64,000 nucleotides of DNA from positions 1,168,569 through 1,232,568 of the forward strand of contig OZ252242.1 in NCBI GenBank assembly GCA_965249595.1. Reading direction: 5' to 3'. The stretch is from Chloroflexota bacterium. Lineage in GTDB: Bacteria > Chloroflexota > UBA11872 > VXNJ01. Within the stretch, counting starts at the first letter, position 1. Every line of letters begins with the position of its first letter. A program made the translations under genes and the position numbers. Positions 31,594 to 62,212 of this stretch are shown in pieces. The notes beneath the pieces were generated by a model that ran no database searches, was not told the DNA's origin, and saw nothing but the letters and a program-made list of their open reading frames with translations.

Positions 31594-32898
31594 GTGGCGG
31601 CAATGAGCCTGCGAACGACGCAGCAACCACTGCTGAGTCAATACGCAATAAACGGTGGCGATAACCGCCTGCACGGCGTATTCCGGGTGCCCGGGGCCAA
31701 GAACGCTATATTGCCGATGATGGCGGCCACGCTGCTGACCGAAGAGACCTGTCACCTAACCAATGTTCCGGCGATAACCGACGTCGAATCCATGATTGCC
31801 CTGCTGCGACAACTTGGCGCCCAAGTCGAGTACGATCGCAGCCACAAGCGGTTGACGATAACCGCCGCCAATATCAGTTCGCTCGAGCCTGACCCCGATT
31901 TGGTGGCCGAAATGCGAGCCTCCTTCTTAGTAACCGGGCCGCTACTGGCGCGCTTTGGACGGGTTACCGTAATTACCCCTGGCGGGTGTGAAATTGGCAG
32001 CCGGCCGGTCAATGTCGACGTCGACGGGCTTATTCGCATGGGCGCTACCGTCGAGCAATCGGAGGTCGGTTACGACATGGCCGCCGGCACCCTGCGGGCC
32101 GAGCGGTTGTACCTGAATTACCCATCCCATACCGGCACTGAGAACCTGGTCATGGCGGCGACCCTGGCCGACGGCGTCACCACCATCGTCAACGCGTCGC
32201 GGGAGCCCGAAGTTCTCCATCTCTGCGGATTCTTGCGAGCGATGGGGGCCGACGTCCGCGGCGTTGGAACCAGCGTAATCCGGGTCCACGGGCGCCGCCG
32301 TCTGTTCGGCGCTGGATATCGGGCGATGCCCGACCGCCAAGTTGCCGGCACGATCGCCATCGCCACCGCCGTTTGCGGGGGCGAAGTCGTTCTTGACGAC
32401 ATAGTCCGCGATGACCTCGAACCGGTACTGCTCAAGCTGGAAGAGGCGGGCGTTGATGTGTACCACGAAGGCGACTCGGTCGCCATTGTCTCCAATCGCC
32501 AGCTGCAGGCACTGGAGCTGCAGAGCATGCCACACCCGGGGTTTCCCACCGACAAGCAGGCCGAAATGGGAGCGCTGCTCACCCAGGCCAATGGACGCAG
32601 CGTGATTTCGGAGCGGGTGTTTGAGAATCGATTCGGATATTTCGAAGGCCTCAAAATGTTGGGCGCCCGCATTGAACAAGAGGGTACCTACGCGGTGATT
32701 GAAGGTCCACAGATCCTGCACGGCGCCGAAGTCCCGCTGGCGCGCGATTTGCGGGCCGGTGCGGCTTTAACGATTGCCGCCCTGGCCGCCCGCGGGCGAA
32801 CGGTCCTCAGCGATGTGGAATTTATCCGTCGCGGGTATGAAGACTTGGCTGGCGACCTTGCCAATTTGGGTGCCGATATCCGGTTGGTTGCGCGATGA
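31594..32898 (+). CDS. murA: UDP-N-acetylglucosamine 1-carboxyvinyltransferase
   Basis: VPGAKNAILP, CEIGSRPVNV and GYEDLAGDLANLGADI match the MurA/EPT family. It follows atpC as in many monoderm genomes. Confidence 0.9.
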   Translation: MAAMSLRTTQQPLLSQYAINGGDNRLHGVFRVPGAKNAILPMMAATLLTEETCHLTNVPAITDVESMIALLRQLGAQVEYDRSHKRLTITAANISSLEPDPDLVAEMRASFLVTGPLLARFGRVTVITPGGCEIGSRPVNVDVDGLIRMGATVEQSEVGYDMAAGTLRAERLYLNYPSHTGTENLVMAATLADGVTTIVNASREPEVLHLCGFLRAMGADVRGVGTSVIRVHGRRRLFGAGYRAMPDRQVAGTIAIATAVCGGEVVLDDIVRDDLEPVLLKLEEAGVDVYHEGDSVAIVSNRQLQALELQSMPHPGFPTDKQAEMGALLTQANGRSVISERVFENRFGYFEGLKMLGARIEQEGTYAVIEGPQILHGAEVPLARDLRAGAALTIAALAARGRTVLSDVEFIRRGYEDLAGDLANLGADIRLVAR

Positions 32899-33902
32899 TC
32901 GCGCCACGCAAGCTAGGCATTGACCTGGGGACCGTCAACGTGGTGGTCTTTGTACATGGACGTGGCGTTGTTTTGCGTGAGCCATCGGTAGTGGCCGTAG
33001 CGCGTCCCGGTCGACAGATCGTGGCCGTCGGTTCGAACGCTTATGAAATGATCGGGCGCACGCCGGACAAGATCGAAATTTCAAACCCGCTGCGGGATGG
33101 CGTTATCGCCGACTATCTGGTGACCGAAGCGATGCTAGGTCACTTTATTTCGCGGGCCTGCGGTCGGCTGCGGGTATTGCAGCCGGATGTGATCATTTCG
33201 ATTCCAGCTGATGCCACCGGGGTTGAGCGGCGGGCCGTGCGCGATGCCGCTTCGGCGGCCGGTTGTCGCTCGACGATATTGATCCCGGAGGCCTTGGCCG
33301 CCGCTCTCGGCGCCCGCCTGCCGGTGCAAGAGCCCATCGGCAGCATGATCGTAAACGTCGGCGGGGGAACGGCCGAGATCGCGATCCTCTCGCTCTCGGG
33401 AATCGTTGCGTCTCGTTCGCTGCGGGTGGCGTCCAACGCCTTCGACGACGCCATCGTTTCCTACCTACGGCGTAACTTCAATTTCCTTATTGGCTCCCGC
33501 ACCGCAGAGGAACTCAAGATCTCGATCGGCTCGGCGACCCCGCCAATTGAAAGCGATTTAGTGGAAATCAAGGGTCTCGATATGGAAACTGGATTACCCA
33601 GTTCCATACATGTGCAGCCGCAACATATCTACGAGGCATTGAACCCACCTCTAAGTGAGCTGATCCGGGGAATCAAGTCGGTCCTGGAGCAATCCCCGCC
33701 GGAAATCGCCGGCGACATATTCGACAACGGGATCGTGTTGTCTGGCGGCGGCTGCCTGCTCGCCAACCTGGACGTGCTCATCTCCAGCGAAACTCAGGTC
33801 CCTTGTTTTCGCGCCGAGCAACCGCTCCTGTGCGTGGCCTTAGGCACCGGGATTGCTCTGGAACACTACGATTGGATTTCTCAGTTTTCCCAGTTCAATT
33901 GA
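32895..33902 (+). CDS. mreB: Rod-shape-determining actin homologue MreB/Mbl
   Basis: The actin-fold ATPase motifs GIDLGTVNV (phosphate 1), VNVGGGTAEIAI and VLSGGGCLLANLDVLI. Overlaps the murA stop. Confidence 0.85.
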   Translation: MIAPRKLGIDLGTVNVVVFVHGRGVVLREPSVVAVARPGRQIVAVGSNAYEMIGRTPDKIEISNPLRDGVIADYLVTEAMLGHFISRACGRLRVLQPDVIISIPADATGVERRAVRDAASAAGCRSTILIPEALAAALGARLPVQEPIGSMIVNVGGGTAEIAILSLSGIVASRSLRVASNAFDDAIVSYLRRNFNFLIGSRTAEELKISIGSATPPIESDLVEIKGLDMETGLPSSIHVQPQHIYEALNPPLSELIRGIKSVLEQSPPEIAGDIFDNGIVLSGGGCLLANLDVLISSETQVPCFRAEQPLLCVALGTGIALEHYDWISQFSQFN

Positions 33903-33926: not shown

Positions 33927-34898
33927 TTGAATTACGACTTTTTTCAGACCTACCCGATGCCGGAAGAAGATATCGATATCCTGCGCGAGGTCGGCCAGGT
34001 ACGCCTTCTTCACACCAATGACGTCGATGTCTTAATTCGTGAGGCGCGCAACGCCGATGTGATCGTTTGCGGGACCGAGCCGATAACCGCCGAAGTGATC
34101 GCCGCCGCCAGCAACCTGGTTGCGATCGACCGTTTTGGCGCCGGCTACGACAACATCGACGTGGCAGCCGCCACGGCTCGCAATATCCCGATTTTTTATT
34201 CGCCCAAAGTGAACGCCCAGACGGTAGCCGAGCACACCGTTGGACTGATGCTGGCAACCGCCTACAACATCACCCGCGGCGACCGGTCGGTGCGGGTAGA
34301 GAGCCTGGCGATGCGGCCGATATTGCGCGGGCGCGAGCTTGCCGGAAAAACGCTGGGCGTGGTCGGATTCGGGGAGATCGGGGTTAAAGTTGCCCGCATC
34401 TGCCAGCTCGGGTTCGGCATGGAATTGCTCGTAAATACCAAGAATCCTGATCCGGCCCGATTCGACGCAGCCGGTTTACGCGGCCGTTTTGTCACATTGC
34501 CCGATCTGATGGCCAATTCCGATGTCGTCACCCTGCATGTGCCTATCGTCGATGACACGGCCGGCATGATTTCCAGGTCGTTGATTGAGTCGATGAAACC
34601 GAGCGCATATTTGGTCAATACCGCCCGCGGGGCCCTCGTCGATGAGCAGGCCCTAATCGATGCCCTCACGAGCGAGGCGATAGCCGGGGTCGGGTTGGAC
34701 GTCTACGCGTTCGAACCGCCGGCCCTTGACAACCCTCTGCTGTCCCTTGAGACAGCGGCGCTCACCCCCCATATCGCCTCGAACACGTACGAAGCGTTTC
34801 ACCGTATCGGTGCGCTGTGCCACTCGTCCACGGTTGAATTCCTAAAAGGCGGCCGGCCGGCCGCGGTCGTAAACCCGGAGGTTTACGACCGGCTGTAG
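33927..34898 (+). CDS. D-isomer-specific 2-hydroxyacid dehydrogenase (NAD-binding)
   Basis: GVVGFGEIG (Rossmann), NTARGALVDEQAL, GLDVYAFEP, and the catalytic His region TPHIAS. Confidence 0.85.
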   Translation: MNYDFFQTYPMPEEDIDILREVGQVRLLHTNDVDVLIREARNADVIVCGTEPITAEVIAAASNLVAIDRFGAGYDNIDVAAATARNIPIFYSPKVNAQTVAEHTVGLMLATAYNITRGDRSVRVESLAMRPILRGRELAGKTLGVVGFGEIGVKVARICQLGFGMELLVNTKNPDPARFDAAGLRGRFVTLPDLMANSDVVTLHVPIVDDTAGMISRSLIESMKPSAYLVNTARGALVDEQALIDALTSEAIAGVGLDVYAFEPPALDNPLLSLETAALTPHIASNTYEAFHRIGALCHSSTVEFLKGGRPAAVVNPEVYDRL

Positions 34899-34916: not shown

Positions 34917-36092
34917 TTGTCCAGCAATCGAGATCCGGCAATGTTAGGTCCGTTGGCTGTGGCAGTTATCGAATATTTGGCCGACGCCAACAGCCGGCTG
35001 ACCCTCGCCTGCGCCGGCGCCGGGTCGTCGGCGATAGCGTCGCTGGCCAGCTGCCCCGGTGCCTCGAAGGTATTGGTCGAGGGCCGGCTGGCATATTCCC
35101 GGGCGGCGGTGGAGCAGGCCAGCAACTCCGCTGTCGAAGCGGAGTTTTGCAGTCCAGCGATGTCGTTGGACCTGGCGCACCTGGCTCTGCGTCGAGCTCG
35201 CGAGTATGAACCGGATGCCGGCTTGCAACTGACCGCCGTTGCCGCCAGCGGGGCGCTGGCCACCAGTCGCGCTCGGCGTGGTCGCGACCGCGCCTACATT
35301 GCGGCTGTGGCGGTCGGCCGAACCGACGTGTATTCGCTCGAATTGGCCAATTGGCCGGGCCAACGGGCGGCCCAGGAACTACTCACCGGGGCAGCATTGC
35401 TCCTAGCTGCCGTCCCGGAACGGGACCGGCCCGCCGACCTGCCCTTGCCCGAAGGACTCGTGGAAACTCTCATGCGAGTGGACATAGCGCCGAGTTATTG
35501 GCCGCAGAGGGTTCTTCGCAGCGTCATTCCATTCGCCTTGTTCGATCAAGCCGGCGCCTGGTCGGCGCCGCCGCCGGCGCCGCGGGCCCTGCTCGCCGGA
35601 TCATTTAATCCGCTCCACGACGGACACCGTCGCCTGGCCGAGGCGGCTGAATCGCACCTGGGCGTTGCAGTGGCTTTTGAGCTGTCGATGGCCAACGTCG
35701 AGAAACCGGAATTGCAGTCTGATGTGGTGGTCGATCGCGTCGAAAGTATGGCGGCGCGGCGAACGGTAACGGTAGACATGGCGGCTACGTTCGCGCAAAA
35801 AGCGGCCCTTTTTCCGGGTGCGGTTTTCGTAGTTGGCGCCGATACCGCAGAAAGAATCGTTGACCCACGGTTCTACGGCGGCAGCCGGTCGACCATGCAC
35901 ACGGCGCTCTCATCCATCGCCGATTGCGGATGCAGTTTTTTGGTGGCCGGGCGGGCCCTTCGGCGAGGCTATGTGACGATGGCCGATCTGGATCTTGCGG
36001 CCGCACCTCAGCTGTTTTCGATGCTGGAGGAAAGTGCCTTCCGCCTGGATGTGTCCTCAACGTCCATACGCCGGCAGGGTGGTTTGGAATGA
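34917..36092 (+). CDS. Fusion protein: CinA C-terminal (PncC, NMN deamidase)-like domain + NadD/NMNAT-like nucleotidyltransferase domain
   Basis: N-terminal half: LTLACAGAGSSAIASLASCPGASKVLVEGRLAYSRAAVE, comparable to the CinA-C TAESCTGG...PGSS...GGxxAYS motif. C-terminal half: ALLAGSFNPLHDGHRRLAEAA ((H/T)xGH nucleotidyltransferase motif) and ...VSSTSIRRQ (the ISSTxIR motif of NaMN/NMN adenylyltransferases). Confidence 0.55.
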   Translation: MSSNRDPAMLGPLAVAVIEYLADANSRLTLACAGAGSSAIASLASCPGASKVLVEGRLAYSRAAVEQASNSAVEAEFCSPAMSLDLAHLALRRAREYEPDAGLQLTAVAASGALATSRARRGRDRAYIAAVAVGRTDVYSLELANWPGQRAAQELLTGAALLLAAVPERDRPADLPLPEGLVETLMRVDIAPSYWPQRVLRSVIPFALFDQAGAWSAPPPAPRALLAGSFNPLHDGHRRLAEAAESHLGVAVAFELSMANVEKPELQSDVVVDRVESMAARRTVTVDMAATFAQKAALFPGAVFVVGADTAERIVDPRFYGGSRSTMHTALSSIADCGCSFLVAGRALRRGYVTMADLDLAAAPQLFSMLEESAFRLDVSSTSIRRQGGLE

Positions 36093-36353
36093 ACTTTGGT
36101 CGGCCGCGGGGTCCATCCGAATGCCTAGCCCGCATTTTGCACCAGCATGCCCGTTCGACCCCAATTCGGGCTGATTGGGCGTGATCGGACCTGATTTGCG
36201 GTGGGAGCCGTCCATTTCCGACTAAATTGCGACCGTTATCGGTGCCAGACCCTCCCGCAACAGCGCATCCGACTCATTTGCGGCGCAAACTGCCTGCATT
36301 GGACCCGGCGCGGCCGGGACCCTGGCCGTCAGGCTATCCGGGAGCGCCGGGTA

Positions 36354-37581
36354 CTACCCCGGCGTCATAGGGTAGAGGGGAACCCTGGCCAGATTGGCAA
36401 GGGCCCTGGCAAATTCCTCCTGCCAGGGATAGGCCGTAGGCAATGCGAGCCATATGCGGCGATGGGTTATCTTGATGCGGGCGGCGATCTTGAGATAGCG
36501 CAGGCGCAGGGTATCGCAGCGCCGACGGGCATTGGCGGTTCCTTGCAAACCCAGCCGTCGCAGGCTCTCCAGCAATACGTAGGCGAACCCTGAGAAATAC
36601 AGTCGTAGCTGATTGGAGCGCATGGCCCCGGTGGAGGTGCGGTCGGCGAACAGTCCCAGCTGCATCTCCTTGATACGGTTCTCCATCTCGCCCCGGGCGC
36701 AGTAGAGCTTCTCGTATAGATCCTGTTTGCCGATACGGGATGGGGACAGGTTGGTTACCACGAATCTGGGATTGGGACCCTTGCGCAGATGCTCGGCCTT
36801 ACCCACCACCCGGCGCCGCTTCGACCATGACTTTAAGGTCCGGTAGTGGAACTGGCGAAAGCGCCGTGACCGGGAGCCGGTGGCGATGGAGCGCCGCCGC
36901 GATTTATGGAGCGCCTTTCCCAGCTTCTGCTGTAGGCGAGGGTTGCGGGACAGACCGAAGACGTAGCCGATGCCCTCCTTCTCACACCAGGTCATGGTCG
37001 CATCGCGGGCAAAGCCTTAAATCGGCGCGCAGGATGATCTCCGTATCCGGCCAGGCCGATCTGATCCGGGCGATGAGCGGGGAGAGTTCTTCCGCCATCC
37101 CCGCTCCGGGATCGCGGCTGGCGCCTTTTAGACGGCAGAGCAGCAGGTGCTCTCCGCAGAAGACGTACAGCGGCAGGTAGCAGTATGAGCGGTAATAGCC
37201 ATGGAAGAATCTGCCTTCCTGCTTACCGTGCAGTGGATCGTCGGTTGCGTCAAGGTCGAGGACGATCCGCCGCGGCGGACGCTGCTGGGCCTCGATGAAC
37301 AGATCGCACAGCAGGGCGTCCATCTTCGCAAAGTCGGCCGCGATCTTCCGGTAGCGGTCTAAAGGAGCCGTATCCGGGCGTGAGAGTTCCAGGCGGTTTA
37401 GGGCCGATGCCGATGCCAGCGGCCTGCCCCTGTCGCGCTTGCGGCGGCGTCTCTCTCCGGTCAAATCATCCTTACCCGCCAATAGCGCCAGCATTGGATC
37501 GGCGCGCAGGACATCGTGATCGTTTAACGGGGATCCACCGAAATTGTCGACAAGTTGCCATTTCCGGTCCTGACGAATCAA
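36354..37581 (-). mobile_element. DDE transposase gene of the IS4 superfamily, split by a frameshift into two ORFs (IS copy A, probable pseudogene)
   Basis: The N-terminal fragment 36982..37581(-) contains LDLDATDDPLHGKQEGRFFHGYYRSYCYLPLYVF (first catalytic Asp block). The C-terminal fragment 36354..36995(-) contains YCARGEMENRIKEMQLGL (the E/K block of IS4-type DDE enzymes). The frames differ and overlap by 14 nt. Confidence 0.7.
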
Positions 37582-37601
37582 TCATCTGCCACCATCACCG
37601 G

Positions 37602-39073
37602 TTAATGCGCTGCCACCGCCGCTGCAATCGCCCAACAGCGCTGCAAATGCCGGCCAGTTGGCCAGTCAAGGCCCCTATCTGCGGCCGCTGGGATGCTTAA
37701 CGCCCACAGGTAGGGGTGATTACATCCGCAGTCCCTGTGGACCGCGGGGGTCAGATAGGCTGCGGCAGCCCCCGCAGCCGGGAAAGCGCGATCTTGATCT
37801 GATCTGCCCAGGGCCAGCGCAACGGCCGATGCAGGGTGTGGCGACGCGCCGACCTGCTCAATCGTCCCGGCAGGGCGAATATCCTCCGCCGCAGGGTGGG
37901 AGTGGTAACGACTGAGCCGTCGCCAGAGCCGATTACGGCGATCCAGCGGCCGAGCTTGTGGGCGGTCGCCGGTATCGCCAGCCACAGCGGCGTTGGCGGT
38001 AAAGCTCCCCGCTGGCATGTGGTTGCGGCCGACGCCGTACTTTAGGTCCTTGATCGCGTTCTCGATTTCGGCATGACGGCGATGATCGTCCTCCAGGGAG
38101 ATCATCTCTCCCTTGCGGTCGGTGATGAAGGCGTGGTAAGAGTAATTGGCCAGCAGGGCCAGCGGCGACCCCGGTGTGGGTTTTACCCGTCTTACGATCA
38201 GACGCAGCGGTTCTGAATTCTCCGAAGGGGGCATAGGCTATCTCGGCTGCGTCGGCGGCGCCATCGAGCCAGTACTCTAGCGGAGTCCAGTCCTCCTCGG
38301 CTATCTCTTCGATCTTCTGACGCAGGCTAGAGTGCTGGCGGACAGTTATCGAGAAGCGTACGTTGTGCTCTCGGCCGGTGGCAACGATCCGCTTTGAGTA
38401 GAAACCGGAGTCGGCGCGCATCGTCAGCTGCCCCTTAGCGCCGGCATAGCGCACCCGGCTTACGGTCTCGGTGAGAAAGTGCGCCGCGCCGCGGCCGGTG
38501 TTGGCCCGGCCCCTGCGCCGACGGGCAAAGAGCACCTGGCCGGTTCCGGCGGCAACCGCCAGTAAGGGATGGTAGCCACGCACTCCGCATATAGCAGTGA
38601 TCACGGGCGCCATCTTTTTTGCGACCGTAAGTCTGGCCGACGGTCGAGTCAAGATCAATGGTGAAGGGATCCCTGCCGGGACCGGCGCCGGCATCCCCGG
38701 CCCGCCGCCGCCGCTGGCGGCTGATCCCATCCAGCTGGCGTACGTGTCCCCATCTGAAACTGCGCAGGAATGCCCCCAGAGTAGAAGGGGCCTTGACCTT
38801 AAAGCCCAGCACCTTCTCGGTATCGCCCGAGCGCAGGACATCGGCATCGTCGATGCAGTCTCCGCCGCCAAGGGCCGAGGCCACCAGCGTCTGCAGCTTG
38901 TCGGAGGCATTGGCGGCGCCGGGAGTTGAGCCCAGGGTAAGGCGGGAGTCGCTAAGTTCCCCAAGTCCCAGGCGCTTAGCCAGGGTCATCGGCAGGAGCA
39001 GTCCGGCATTGGCCACCAGGTTCTTCTCGTCGAAGGCGATCTGGACGCGGTCGGGGTTAATAGTTGGTAGCAT
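37602..39073 (-). mobile_element. IS1380-like DDE transposase gene broken into three ORFs (IS copy B, probable pseudogene)
   Basis: Fragments: 38435..39073(-) has FDEKNLVANAGLLLPMTLAKRLGL...IDLDSTVGQTYGRKKDGA; 37933..38964(-) has ...GAKGQLTMRADSGFYSKRIVATGREHNVRFSITVR...; 37602..38234(-) has ...YSYHAFITDRKGEMISLEDDHRRHAEIENAIKDLKYGVGRNHMPAGSFTANAAV, the IS1380-type C-terminus. An AT-rich terminal sequence at 39074-39190 abuts the uppP stop. Confidence 0.7.
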
Positions 39074-39194
39074 CTTTTAGGTGCTCCCTGTTTCTTGTGA
39101 ATTTGGTCGTCGTAAACCAATTTTCCCAAGATACGGGGAAGCACTTTTTCTTATTTCAGGGCCGGTCCGCCAGAGATGTTTCGGTGGATCCCCG

Positions 39195-56852: not shown

Positions 56853-56925
56853 GGGGATGTAGCTCAGCTGGAAGAGCGCTGCCTTTGCAAGGCAGAGGTC
56901 AGGGGTTCGAGCCCCCTCATCTCCA
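56853..56925 (+). tRNA. tRNA-Ala (anticodon UGC)
   Basis: ggggaug-ua-gcucagcuggaagagc-g-cugcc-uuUGCaa-ggcag-aggucagggguucgagcccccu-caucucc-a. The G3:U70 identity pair is present. CCA is not encoded (followed by ccc). Confidence 0.9.
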
Positions 56926-57719: not shown

Positions 57720-58745
57720 ATGAGCAGCGAGAAGTCGTGGCCGATGACGAATTCAAGCCCAAAGATCAAGCTGATCATCGATACCGACTGTGGTGTTGAT
57801 GATGCGGTGGCTCTTTGGTATGCGTTGACCTGCCCGATCTTCGAAGTCGAACTAATCACCTGCGTCCACGGCAACGTCGGCCATGACTTAGTGGCGCGAA
57901 ATGTCGCCCGGGTCCTGGGGGCGGCCGGACGCACCGACATCCCAGTTGCGTTGGGCGCCTCGGATGCCTTGGCGGGCTCGCCGGTTGTCGGAAGGGCCGC
58001 TTCCGTCCACGGAAACGACGGCCTGGGTGACGCCGATTTGATGGACTACACGATTGAATTCGATGACTTGTCGGCCGACCAGGCGATAGTTGATCGAGCC
58101 CGCCGCATGCCAGGGCAATTGACGTTAGCGGCGCTAGGTCCGGCGACCAACGTGGCGCGGGCGCTGCGTCTTGAGCCGGAGCTACCGAACTTGCTTGGCG
58201 AATTGATCGCCATGGGCGGAACTTTCAATCTCCCCGGCAATATTTCACCGGTCGCCAGCTTCAACACTGCCGGAGACCCCTTGGCGGCCAAAGAAATGGT
58301 GAACGCGGCCTGGCCGCAACCACCGCGGCTGCTCACTTATGACGTGATGCGAGTGACAACTTTGTCCAGCGTGGAACTGGAGACGTTGAAAGCAAGTCAA
58401 TCACCATCGGCGCGATTTTTAGCCCGCCCTATGGCCTACTATCACTTCGCTACCGCGGGCGCTAACGCGGGTGGAAGGATGGTCTGCCCGGACTTATTAA
58501 CGCTTGTCTGGCTGACCGATCCCGACGCTGTCAATTCGAATGTTTATTCGATGGACGTCGATGTGGGGCGTGACGCGGCGTGGGGGATGACGGTTGTAGA
58601 CCGGCGCGAACCGTCCTTAATAGCGGTGACGGAACAGAGTCGCCACGTCGACCCCGCCGTAACCCCGACCGCCCGCTGGGAGATTTCCGAGTCGGCCGAC
58701 GAAGCCCCGTTTAGAGCCGCATTTCGCCATTTGCTCGGCACCTAG
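57720..58745 (+). CDS. Inosine-uridine-preferring nucleoside hydrolase family protein
   Basis: IKLIIDTDCGVDDAVAL (DxDxxxDD Ca-binding motif). The start may be M9 at 57744. Confidence 0.85.
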   Translation: MSSEKSWPMTNSSPKIKLIIDTDCGVDDAVALWYALTCPIFEVELITCVHGNVGHDLVARNVARVLGAAGRTDIPVALGASDALAGSPVVGRAASVHGNDGLGDADLMDYTIEFDDLSADQAIVDRARRMPGQLTLAALGPATNVARALRLEPELPNLLGELIAMGGTFNLPGNISPVASFNTAGDPLAAKEMVNAAWPQPPRLLTYDVMRVTTLSSVELETLKASQSPSARFLARPMAYYHFATAGANAGGRMVCPDLLTLVWLTDPDAVNSNVYSMDVDVGRDAAWGMTVVDRREPSLIAVTEQSRHVDPAVTPTARWEISESADEAPFRAAFRHLLGT

Positions 58746-58939: not shown

Positions 58940-62024
<3,085 letters not shown>

Positions 62025-62091: not shown

Positions 62092-62212
62092 TCCCCCGGT
62101 GACCAAGCGGAGGGGCCCCACCCGTTCTCATTCCGAACACGGAAGTTAAGCCCTCCAGCGCCGACAATACTTAACGGGCAACTGTTCGGGAAGATAGGTC
62201 GTCGCCGGGGGT
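62092..62212 (+). rRNA. rrf: 5S ribosomal RNA
   Basis: Helix I is cccccggugac...gucgccggggg, and the internal loop C/E blocks are ccacccguucucauuccgaacacggaaguuaagc. A T-run (ttctttt) follows. Confidence 0.85.

Follow-up and report, generated by a model that had tools for sequence, protein, structure and literature searches.

A probable Pof1-type nucleotidyltransferase fused to a PncC-derived domain with a lost catalytic dyad in environmental bacteria

Current descriptions of bacterial NAD biosynthesis comprise three NMNAT-type enzymes (NadD, NadR and NadM), of which NadD prefers NaMN. In yeast, Pof1 is an NMNAT that reportedly accepts NMN but not NaMN, and whose HxxH mutant H43A is inactive (PMC13191266). 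The PncC/CinA proteins have been divided into the sequence blocks P-I to P-VIII (PMC3855486), roles have been assigned to the residues that line their pocket, and the S31A and K63A mutants of AtCinA are each without activity (PMC5384747). The E. coli YdeJ and YfaY lineages have the CinA fold and no NMN deamidase activity; they lost the positions G46/S48 and R145, and YdeJ also carries Y58F (PMC3855486). Proteins that join an NMNAT or a PncC to a second NAD-nucleotide module are NadM-Nudix, NadR (NMNAT plus NR kinase) and COG1058-PncC (PMC3680494).

The protein described here combines modules of the same two kinds, with other partners and another NMNAT subfamily than in those fusions, and unlike them, where both halves are active, it has one half that is an apparent pseudoenzyme. 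Its gene lies in the 64-kb stretch of DNA that was analyzed (64,000 nucleotides, hereafter the window), in an open reading frame without interruption at 34917..36092 (+), which yields 391 residues from its TTG codon. The ATG at 34941, eight codons downstream, is more likely the start, because a database twin (P0001, 100% identical, 383 aa) begins there, as do most family members in the family alignment. The AF2 model of the two-domain protein has a pLDDT of 91.3 and a pTM of 0.88, the latter of which implies a defined arrangement of the domains relative to one another. Family members outside the clade of the window protein share with it, on average, 12% identity in the linker, 30% in the N domain and 49% in the C domain. 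We interpret the protein as a Pof1-type NMN (possibly NaMN) adenylyltransferase joined to a non-catalytic, PncC-derived mononucleotide-binding module, with a single activity between them, and place the probability of this reading at roughly 0.6.

Table 1. Features of the fusion gene. Residues are numbered from M9 of the 391-aa form (= ATG 34941).
Feature	Position in window	Strand	Remarks
Whole gene	34941..36092	+	ATG 34941 start, 383 aa, stop TGA 36090-36092
Alternative start	TTG 34917 (upstream)	+	391-aa ORF of the initial annotation
CinA/PncC-like N domain, residues 1-160	34941..35420	+	CinA fold (AF2 model); amidohydrolase dyad missing
LACAGAGS, residues 22-29	35004..35027	+	Degenerate counterpart of PncC P-I (AESCTGG); gapless register anchored on G40, S42, Y52
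Ala25, at catalytic Ser position	35013-35015	+	Matches AtCinA S31 / EcPncC S29
PGAS...Y52...V57, residues 39-57	35055..35111	+	G40, S42, Y52 = AtCinA G46, S48, Y58 phosphate contacts
Val57, replaces general base Lys	35109-35111	+	Matches AtCinA K63 / EcPncC K61 (YxNxxK)
Arg142, first turn of last N-domain helix (142-156 in model)	35364..35366	+	Probable counterpart of PncC phosphate-binding Arg145; register uncertain by 2 residues
Linker / small beta-hairpin subdomain, residues 161-211	35421..35573	+	Poorly conserved; model secondary structure
Pof1-type / NadD-like nucleotidyltransferase domain, residues 212-383	35574..36089	+	Pfam, hhalign, Foldseek
GSFNPLHDGH, (H/T)xGH ATP-binding and catalytic motif (H226, H229)	35598..35627	+	Invariant 119/119, 146/146; aligns with Pof1 SFNPPHLAH and NadD
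NVEK (N252...K255), family/Pof1 signature N-x-D/E-K	35694..35705	+	N252, K255 invariant; aligns with Pof1 NNADK
VGADTAERIVDPRFY, signature G-x-DT-x-x-RI-x-D-x-x-(Y/F)Y, common to Pof1 (VGFDTIARIFDEKYY)	35832..35876	+	G299, D301, T302, R305 invariant
VSSTSIRR, SxxxxR motif (S372/S373...R377)	36051..36074	+	Aligns with ISST/VSSSEIR motifs of NadD and Pof1

The initial annotation had proposed a single polypeptide with a CinA/PncC-like N-terminal half and a NadD/NMNAT-like C-terminal half, and Pfam, profile matches to PDB sequences and Foldseek bore this out. In the Pfam searches CTP_transf_like (PF01467) matched the C half end to end (residues 226-386 of the 391-aa form, 26 bits, cutoff 21), whereas CinA (PF02464) covered residues 13-143 of the window protein at 19.2 bits, just below its cutoff of 23.5. 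Among the 52 family members tested, all matched CTP_transf_like and 29 matched CinA at E<=0.01 (best 5e-7), with one protein (P0419) passing the CinA cutoff at 30.2 bits. A family profile was needed for the PDB matches, because a single-sequence search of the PDB with the window protein produced noise only, such as triosephosphate isomerase at E>0.2. The profile found CinA (2a9s) at E=1.1e-5, and the N half of the AF2 model retrieved CinA structures, with 2a9s at a TM of 0.77, an rmsd of 2.5 A and E=6e-7. These comparisons, in part on a predicted structure, showed homology of the N half to the PncC/CinA NMN deamidases (EC 3.5.1.42; A. tumefaciens 2A9S, E. coli YgaD, T. thermophilus CinA 4CT8); unlike in those proteins, the domain is here joined to a nucleotidyltransferase, and the N-terminal COG1058/MocF domain that usually accompanies it is replaced or missing.

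To describe the pocket of the N domain, residue conservation was counted in two sets, a first set of 119 sequences and a set of 146 diverse representatives (265 in total). The alignments showed that the catalytic residues of PncC have been lost. At position 25, where PncC has its serine, the first set has T87/A30/S2 and the representatives T103/A31/S11, and in an alternative alignment the Glu-Ser pair is deleted outright. Position 57, that of the PncC lysine, is L102/A10/V4/M2 in the first set and L112/M15/F8/T3/Q2 among the representatives; a lysine occurs there in 0 of 265 family sequences. The blocks P-I (ESCT) and P-VI (S/T-G-I/V-AGPxGG, the amide contact and oxyanion hole) were not recognizable in the family, which has GVGCTASLA(S/T)DRPKRG at the position of P-VI, the window protein having AVAASGALATSRARRG. 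A caveat in the initial annotation, that the CinA-like motifs are somewhat divergent, was apt; the Ser/Lys dyad and both of these blocks are gone.

The residues that hold the phosphate have been kept. In the first set G40 and Y52 are present in 119/119 sequences and S42 in 117/119, and R142 is invariant in both sets (119/119 and 146/146). Together with G114, these (near-)invariant residues match the phosphate-binding and pocket blocks of PncC, namely P-II (G-A/S-S), the tyrosine of P-III, the glycine of P-VII, and P-VIII, and an arginine opens the last helix in both families. MAFFT pairs R142 of the E. coli protein with family position 140 instead, which is a glycine in the window protein, and hhalign against a single E. 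coli PncC or NadD sequence did not give a signal strong enough to align the second half of either domain. As CinA-fold proteins that lack NMN deamidase activity, YdeJ and YfaY provide a precedent, but the decay there was the opposite one, as the family described here keeps the phosphate elements and loses the residues for chemistry. Because the residues for chemistry are lost and the phosphate clamp retained, the N domain is most likely a non-catalytic binder of a (pyridine) mononucleotide.

The motifs of the transferase half are strictly conserved. Ten residues (H226, H229, N252, K255, R266, D301, T302, R305, S372 and R377) are invariant in 146/146 representatives and in 119/119 sequences of the first set, except R377 with 118/119; Y312 is found in 119/119 and 130/146, respectively. 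By these motifs the C domain looks active. GSFNPLHDGH and VSSTSIRR were both found where the initial annotation had placed them, and the match of the family profile to NadD (8aih, E=7e-5) aligned the HxGH and SSTxxR elements in register. Neither the families proposed for the two halves nor the alignment of the motifs needed revision. A Foldseek search with the C domain of the model alone retrieved NadD structures at the top (1kaq, E=8e-6, TM 0.56; then 3e27, 1k4k, 2h29 and 5deo), and the NadD enzymes of B. subtilis (1kaq) and E. coli (1k4k) are thus the nearest solved folds. Overall these matches had a TM of ~0.5 and an rmsd of 4.5-6.6 A, which indicates, on the predicted model, that the C domain is a distant branch from NadD. 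With the full-length model ATP sulfurylase had outranked NadD, and we set this candidate aside as the order was reversed with the C domain alone. There was no Pof1 structure among the PDB hits, and fold comparison for that reason cannot separate Pof1 from NadD.

The ISSTxIR-type motif is shared with NadD, and the C half of the window protein fails the NadD equivalog cutoffs by a wide margin. The window protein scored 29.1 bits with TIGR00482 (cutoff 112.45), 24.3 bits with NF000843 (cutoff 240), 12-24 bits with the PRK00071 models (cutoffs 150-329) and at most 14.5 bits with all other NadD models. A phmmer search with EcNadD reached the family only at E~0.04, versus 4e-19 for a true NadD (L073), and the HMM alignment with EcNadD was significant only across the ~30-residue HxGH segment.

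The comparison with yeast Pof1, the sequence of which was confirmed by exact look-up (NP_009883.1, S. cerevisiae YCL047C), extended across the whole catalytic domain. Aligned by hhalign to the fungal Pof1 family, the C domain of the family gave a probability of 99.4% and E=1e-21 over 161 columns with all motifs in register; against NadD the value was 2.5e-7, with a shallow NadD profile (enterobacterial sequences and one other) that may exaggerate the margin of Pof1 over NadD. The C-domain HMM scored Pof1 at 25.9 bits over ~100 positions and EcNadD at 14.0 bits over 28 positions, and comparisons with single sequences gave E=4e-8 to 9e-13 for four Pof1-type proteins and 3.5e-5 and 1e-7 for two NadD proteins. 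The fungal Pof1 HMM matched 119/119 family members with scores of 20.7-40.5 bits, each higher than that of EcNadD (18.7 bits); for the window protein itself its 25.5 bits are comparable to the 29 bits of TIGR00482. The Pof1 signatures SFNPxHxxH, NxDK, GxDTxxRIxDxxYY and SSxxxR are present and (near-)invariant in the family, the window protein having the variants NVEK and ...PRFY, and in longer form SFNPxHxGH, (L)SVxNxDK, LTxxxxFxxK, VGxDTxxRIxDxxYY and SSxxxR are common to both sides. Together, these sequence comparisons showed the C domain to be closer to Pof1 than to NadD. Unlike the fusion, Pof1 and the retrieved fungal homologs are single-domain proteins of about 220-400 aa, mostly 250-300, none of which has a CinA-like half; fungal insertions make their core ~35 aa longer, and identity is only ~22%. 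Arabidopsis At2g01220, a plant protein of ~390 aa, may be of the Pof1 family as well, and we found nothing in the literature on it as a Pof1-family homolog.

The family is large, bacterial and uncharacterized. Representatives of 50%-identity clusters that match it at E<=1e-30 number 2,729, far more than chance would produce, and the fusion occurs in Planctomycetota, Chloroflexota, Verrucomicrobiota, Proteobacteria and others, and also in SAR86. The initial annotation had called this architecture uncommon, and its abundance across many phyla of environmental bacteria contradicts that. Complete genomes that carry a member include OZ240207.1 and CP121333.1. Of the best 150 representatives, 149 span both domains; the exception is a 291-aa protein that starts at profile position 94. 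A standalone C domain is present in several genomes, among them that of Zavarzinella formosa (L064), and the N domain may for this reason be dispensable for basic activity. In L045, L065 and L066 an N ORF seems to lie next to a C ORF; we did not count these as gene fission, because the in-frame stop or frameshifts in these MAGs are possible assembly errors. Our literature search found no paper that describes the PncC-like/Pof1-type fusion; a cyanobacterial 'NMNAT-C' paper was rejected as precedent, since it concerns a standalone NMNAT and CinA appears there only as a pathway enzyme.

The gene neighborhood consists of housekeeping genes. All-vs-all clustering of 72 loci and the annotated contigs contained no neighbor that is conserved across phyla and no NAD-pathway partner, and phmmer searches of the window and of the flanking sequence that was fetched, with the E. 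coli proteins as queries, found no canonical nadD or pncC. A single true NadD was recovered by phmmer, L073, and it belongs to an unrelated genome. There was no riboswitch or other RNA element near the gene and no promoter- or terminator-like site between it and the upstream gene. We also considered a role in anti-phage defence, which was rejected based on PADLOC models (0 families at E<=1) and the housekeeping context. Synteny is lineage-specific: in the window clade the gene accompanies an atp-murA-mreB-2-Hacid_dh block, and in Chloroflexota it lies directly upstream of UbiD-UbiA-UbiX, which are genes for prenylated-FMN and quinone biosynthesis, a linkage seen in this one phylum only.

That neighborhood raises the possibility of a link to flavins or quinones and bears on the option that the C domain uses a substrate other than a pyridine nucleotide (phosphopantetheine, FMN, a sugar phosphate or sulfate), the phosphate of which the CinA-like domain would bind, with no role in NAD metabolism. 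PF01467 is indeed a broad superfamily, and PPAT and ATP sulfurylase are among the weaker sequence or fold matches. However, the PPAT matches are confined to the HxGH segment at E>=3e-3, the UbiD linkage is limited to its one phylum, the strongest and only full-length relationships are those with Pof1-type NMNATs (E=1e-21) and NadD, and pyridine mononucleotides are the substrates of PncC and NMNAT, the two parent families; we regard this option as quite improbable. The coupling that the initial annotation had in mind, in which the N domain would convert NMN to NaMN and the C domain NaMN to NaAD, with channelling between two successive reactions of the pyridine nucleotide cycle, is in our view very improbable. 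It has both domain families right; among solved structures the C domain is nearest in fold to NadD enzymes, which prefer NaMN; the phosphate contacts of PncC are retained; and fused NAD-recycling enzymes such as COG1058-PncC and NadM-Nudix are known (PMC3680494). Yet Ala25 and Val57 stand in place of a Ser/Lys pair of which either single mutant is dead in AtCinA, Lys57 is absent from all 265 sequences, P-I and P-VI with their amide contacts are not conserved, and the window clade additionally lacks T25, D109, H116, K137 and R140. The C domain is below the NadD equivalog cutoffs and closer to the reportedly NMN-only Pof1, and a transferase that uses NMN would draw on the same substrate as a fused deamidase and not on its product. 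In view of the lost dyad, and of a C half that is nearer to Pof1 than to NadD, the two-step coupling is not supported.

The pocket of the N domain leaves room for another option, that it carries out a new chemistry on a phosphorylated NAD-related metabolite, with a Thr25, Asp109 and Lys112/Lys137/His116 pocket that was diverged or inactivated in the window clade. Outside that clade T25, D109, K112, H116, R117, K137 and R140 are each kept in >80-95% of sequences, which exceeds what a passive scaffold normally requires, and the Thr/Lys/Asp set recalls an asparaginase-like mechanism once proposed for PncC (PMC5384747). The polar set T25, D109, K112, H116, K137 and R140 could be the seat of another catalytic activity and not a passive binding pocket. 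Against this, Ala is found at position 25 in about 21-25% of members with the pocket otherwise often intact, so that position 25 is not an essential nucleophile, and the gene context suggests no candidate reaction. The window clade (14/14 sequences) has replaced T25, H116 and K112, has also lost D109 and has mostly lost K137 and R140, and the new-chemistry option is for this reason inapplicable to the window protein; for the family at large we consider it unlikely.

Based on the loss of the catalytic residues from the PncC half and the closeness of the transferase to Pof1, the window protein is probably a single-activity NMN adenylyltransferase. One polypeptide would thus have one catalytic activity, that of a Pof1-type member of the NMNAT/NadD superfamily which adenylylates a pyridine mononucleotide, most likely in the reaction NMN + ATP -> NAD+ + PPi; NaMN is possible as a substrate, and sequence alone does not reveal a preference for one over the other. 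The N domain would have descended from a PncC NMN deamidase, with loss of the Ser/Lys dyad and the amide-contacting blocks and retention of a 5'-phosphate clamp of Gly-x-Ser, Tyr and Arg. It may capture NMN and present it to the transferase, be an allosteric sensor, or give a CinA-type dimer interface. We infer the identity of the substrate, ligand binding by the N domain and communication between the domains; NaMN-preferring NadD as the nearest solved fold and the absence of NAD-pathway neighbors are points against the single-activity NMN adenylyltransferase.

More tentatively, and with considerable doubt, we speculate that these proteins are a fourth class of bacterial NMN adenylyltransferase, orthologous to Pof1, in which the PncC-derived pseudoenzyme domain is a receptor for NMN or an NAD metabolite that feeds or gates the transferase. 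Such a receptor domain would be a built-in device for 'NMN accessibility', of the kind postulated but unexplained for yeast Pof1, and the Thr/Asp/His/Lys pocket of the main branch might even carry a new catalytic activity. If this speculation is correct, a widespread Pof1-type enzyme would be the fourth bacterial NMNAT type in environmentally dominant groups, and reconstructions of the NAD pathway would change for Planctomycetota, Chloroflexota, Verrucomicrobiota, SAR86 and other genomes. The fusion offers a bacterial system that is amenable to study of how Pof1 controls access to NMN, a role so far unexplained. The fusion is also a clean example of an enzyme domain that probably became a ligand-binding pseudoenzyme by losing its chemistry while retaining the phosphate clamp. 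The genes of the family are at present labelled hypothetical, 'CinA family' or 'PncC'; the last of these is misleading, and an automatic annotation of family members as 'NMN deamidase PncC' should be treated as wrong.

The fusion gene is an uninterrupted ORF encoding 391 aa from a TTG start. In the database, an identical protein of 383 aa (P0001) starts eight codons downstream, as do most relatives, and the ATG at 34941 is therefore the likely start codon; residues are numbered from its Met. The initial annotation described a CinA-like N-terminal half and a NadD-like C-terminal half in one polypeptide, and Pfam, searches of PDB sequences and a structural model agreed on this. In Pfam, CTP_transf_like was matched over its full length with 26 bits, against a cutoff of 21, whereas CinA, matched over most of the model, fell just short (19.2 versus 23.5). 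Among 52 relatives, all matched CTP_transf_like and 29 matched CinA at E ≤ 0.01, one passing the CinA cutoff. The family profile matched CinA 2a9s (E = 1.1e-5) and NadD 8aih (E = 7e-5), with the HxGH and SSTxxR motifs, both present as originally quoted (GSFNPLHDGH and VSSTSIRR), in register. The AlphaFold model from the family alignment was confident (pLDDT 91.3, pTM 0.88), and its N-terminal half superposed on CinA structures (2a9s, TM 0.77, rmsd 2.5 Å). Modelled alone (pLDDT 89), the C-terminal half came closest, among solved structures, to NadD enzymes (1kaq, E = 8e-6, TM 0.56; then 3e27, 6kh2, 1k4k, 2h29 and 5deo), with ATP sulfurylase ranking below them.

Features of the fusion gene and its surroundings in the window
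Feature	Position	Strand	Remark
MreB/Mbl-family actin gene	32895-33902	+	directly upstream block
D-2-hydroxyacid dehydrogenase gene	33927-34898	+	directly upstream of fusion gene
Fusion ORF	34917-36092	+	from TTG start
GSFNPLHDGH motif	35598-35627	+	C-terminal half
VSSTSIRR motif	36051-36074	+	C-terminal half
DDE_Tnp_1_4 ORFs	36354-36995, 36982-37581	-	overlapping pair
tRNA	56853-56925		precedes 23S rRNA
ORF	57720-58745		precedes 23S rRNA
23S rRNA	58940-62021		complete
5S rRNA	62095-62210		

The N-terminal half had been proposed to act as a PncC NMN deamidase, a role that its residues do not support. In Agrobacterium tumefaciens CinA, Ser31 and Lys63 form the catalytic dyad, the NMN phosphate is held by Y58, R145 and S48, and the active site is built at the dimer interface, where the other subunit supplies S48; S31A, K63A, Y58A and R145A mutants are each inactive, and S48A leaves about half of the wild-type efficiency (PMC5384747). 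We aligned E. coli PncC and 2a9s to the family with a gapless anchor on the invariant G40, S42 and Y52 (At G46, S48 and Y58). The nucleophile (At S31, Ec S29) then corresponds to position 25, which is Ala in the window protein, T87/A30/S2 in the first set of 119 family sequences and T103/A31/S11 in 146 diverse representatives. The general base (At K63, Ec K61) corresponds to position 57, which is Val in the window protein, L102/A10/V4/M2 in the first set and L112/M15/F8/T3/Q2 in the representatives; no Lys occurs there in any of the 265 sequences. The neighboring Glu (At E30, Ec E28; position 24) is Cys in the window protein and hydrophobic in both sets. An alternative register offered by hhalign deletes the Glu-Ser pair, such that neither register gives the Ser/Lys dyad, and the amide-contacting block P-VI (S/T-G-I/V-AGPxGG) was unrecognisable in the family alignment. 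Ala25 is often found beside an otherwise intact pocket, and thus nowhere in the family is position 25 an essential nucleophile. The window protein is accordingly predicted not to be a functional PncC, the catalytic residues checked being absent, and its N-terminal half is very probably a PncC-derived domain that has no NMN deamidase activity.

The phosphate-binding residues present a different picture. Conservation is complete or almost complete for G40, S42, Y52, G114 and R142 in both sets, and these residues match blocks P-II, P-III-Tyr, P-VII and, probably, P-VIII of PMC3855486, which belong to the phosphate site or the pocket. R142, which in the model opens the last helix of the N domain, where the literature places R145, is probably the PncC phosphate-binding Arg, with the register uncertain relative to R140, the residue that MAFFT pairs with the PncC Arg and whose place in the window protein is taken by Gly. 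This decay is opposite to that of the inactive paralogues YdeJ and YfaY, in which the phosphate-binding residues were lost (PMC3855486), whereas the fusion family keeps them without the chemistry. In the clade of the window protein (14 sequences at 45-49% identity) the pocket is remodelled further than in the rest of the family: all 14 carry T25A, P51A, K112R, H116D and E145Q, and D109, K137 and R140 are mostly lost, yet the N domain is still conserved within the clade despite these changes.

The resemblance of the C-terminal half to NadD itself is distant. The window protein failed all the NadD equivalog models (TIGR00482, 29 bits versus a cutoff of 112), and a search with E. coli NadD reached the fusion family only at E~0.04, compared with 4e-19 for a genuine NadD in L073, from an unrelated genome. 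The family motifs resembled those of yeast Pof1; the Pof1 sequence used for comparison agreed with the published residue numbers H43 and R227, and an exact look-up identified it as NP_009883.1/Pof1p. The family C-domain HMM scored 25.9 bits over ~100 positions against this sequence and 14.0 bits over 28 positions against E. coli NadD. With hhalign, four Pof1-type sequences gave E = 4e-8 to 9e-13 and two NadD sequences 3.5e-5 and 1e-7. In profile-profile comparison, Pof1 (117 fungal sequences, including yeast Pof1) was matched with 99.4% probability (E = 1e-21, 161 columns) and NadD at E = 2.5e-7, a margin to be read cautiously because the NadD profile, for which the homolog search gave enterobacterial sequences only, was shallow. 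The Pof1 alignment spans the whole C domain, with SFNPxHxGH, LSVxNxDK, LTxxxxFxxK, VGxDTxxRIxDPxYY and SSTxxR in register. On these sequence comparisons the C-terminal half is a predicted Pof1-type NMNAT, only distantly NadD-like, and the protein lies outside the NadD equivalog family and within the CinA and nucleotidyltransferase superfamilies. H226, H229, N252, K255, R266, D301, T302, R305, S372 and R377 are invariant in 146/146 representatives, the pattern that would be expected of an active enzyme, and the C domain is likely to be an active NMNAT-superfamily transferase. Yeast Pof1 is an NMNAT that, unlike Nma1 and Nma2, uses NMN as its single substrate, and H43 of its HxxH motif is essential (PMC13191266).

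Our overall reading, to which we give a probability of about 0.6, is of an NMN (possibly NaMN) adenylyltransferase with a non-catalytic, phosphate-binding N domain. The C domain would convert NMN (possibly NaMN) and ATP to NAD+ (or NaAD) and PPi, with the chances that NMN is its substrate about even. The N domain would bind the mononucleotide 5'-phosphate without converting it, as a substrate-capture module, sensor or dimerisation scaffold; whether it binds nucleotide at all we consider evenly balanced. An NMN-using transferase and an active NMN deamidase in one protein would compete, and loss of the deamidase chemistry is coherent with this model. Fusions are known in NAD metabolism (COG1058-PncC, NadM-Nudix and NadR; PMC3680494), and nothing in the family is mechanistically unprecedented. 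It combines known domains, one apparently a pseudoenzyme, in an abundant, uncharacterised architecture; the literature searchable here yielded no description of a PncC-like/Pof1-type fusion or of bacterial Pof1 homologs. With this family, bacterial NAD metabolism would gain a fourth NMNAT type and a systematic mis-annotation would be corrected. In source databases the proteins are labelled "CinA family", "PncC", "NaMN adenylyltransferase" or hypothetical.

A full HMMER search against 1.84 billion cluster representatives matched 2,729 of them at E ≤ 1e-30 and, with the looser limit of E ≤ 1e-3, 7,201. Both domains were spanned in 149 of the best 150, the exception (P0472, 291 aa) beginning at profile position 94. 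Carriers among reference genomes include Planctomycetota, Chloroflexota, Rokubacteria, Latescibacterota, Verrucomicrobiota, Armatimonadota, Spirochaetia, and Alpha- and Gammaproteobacteria (SAR86, OM182, Woeseia), and the two-domain architecture is stable across phyla. The C domain occurred alone at eleven loci, with no CinA-like half in the fetched flanks (≤10 kb per side), three of these being cut at a contig end just upstream. Loci of this kind, with standalone Pof1-like C domains (L048, L052, L055, L057, L058, L061-L064 and L067; ORFs of ~180-280 aa, in some cases truncated by the contig end), were carried by, among others, the isolate Zavarzinella formosa DSM 19928, Chloroflexus sp. and Ca. 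Oscillochloris fontis, and L071 and L072 had a more distant relative with a ~130-aa C-terminal extension. At three loci in MAGs the halves lay in adjacent ORFs, separated by an in-frame stop or frameshifts that may be assembly errors. A few members had extra N-terminal regions, such as TPR repeats in P0393 (659 aa); in P0450 (885 aa), ~480 residues without a Pfam match preceded the two-domain core.

In the window, a complete atp (F1Fo ATP synthase) operon, an EPSP-synthase-fold (MurA/AroA-type) gene, mreB and the 2-hydroxyacid dehydrogenase gene come before the fusion gene, and no promoter- or terminator-like signal was found between it and these genes. Synteny of the entire block extends to L076, a relative with 46% identity, and neighbors are unrelated in other lineages. 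No NAD-pathway gene recurred among the family loci examined, canonical nadD and pncC were absent from the 64-kb window, and PADLOC defence models gave no match. A divergent neighbor at L074 (337-1233, minus strand) had a PTP-NADK domain (PF22741; phosphatase-like, named for NAD kinase association), a single case that may be coincidence. Most of six other loci, mainly of Chloroflexota (L021, L023, L036, L066, and the metagenome contigs L075 and L077), had UbiD-like decarboxylase, UbiA-like prenyltransferase and UbiX-like flavoprotein genes downstream, overlapping or abutting the family gene (about -13 to +5 nt). An operon link to the biosynthesis of prenylated FMN and quinones, specific to this lineage, is suggested; it was not seen in other phyla.

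Directly downstream of the fusion gene (~36100-39190) lies insertion-sequence debris, in which the DDE_Tnp_1_4 pair looks like a single transposase broken by a frameshift; other transposase-like ORFs reach 39073. In L001, a sister assembly from the same organism, this spot holds an IS21-type element (IstB and a Mu-type transposase), and in L076 BacA/uppP follows immediately; the site is thus an insertion-sequence hotspot that varies between near-identical genomes. No 16S gene lies immediately upstream of the 23S rRNA gene, and the rRNA arrangement is unlinked. Unlinked rRNA genes are common in Planctomycetota, and their presence here agrees with the taxonomic placement of the nearest homologs.
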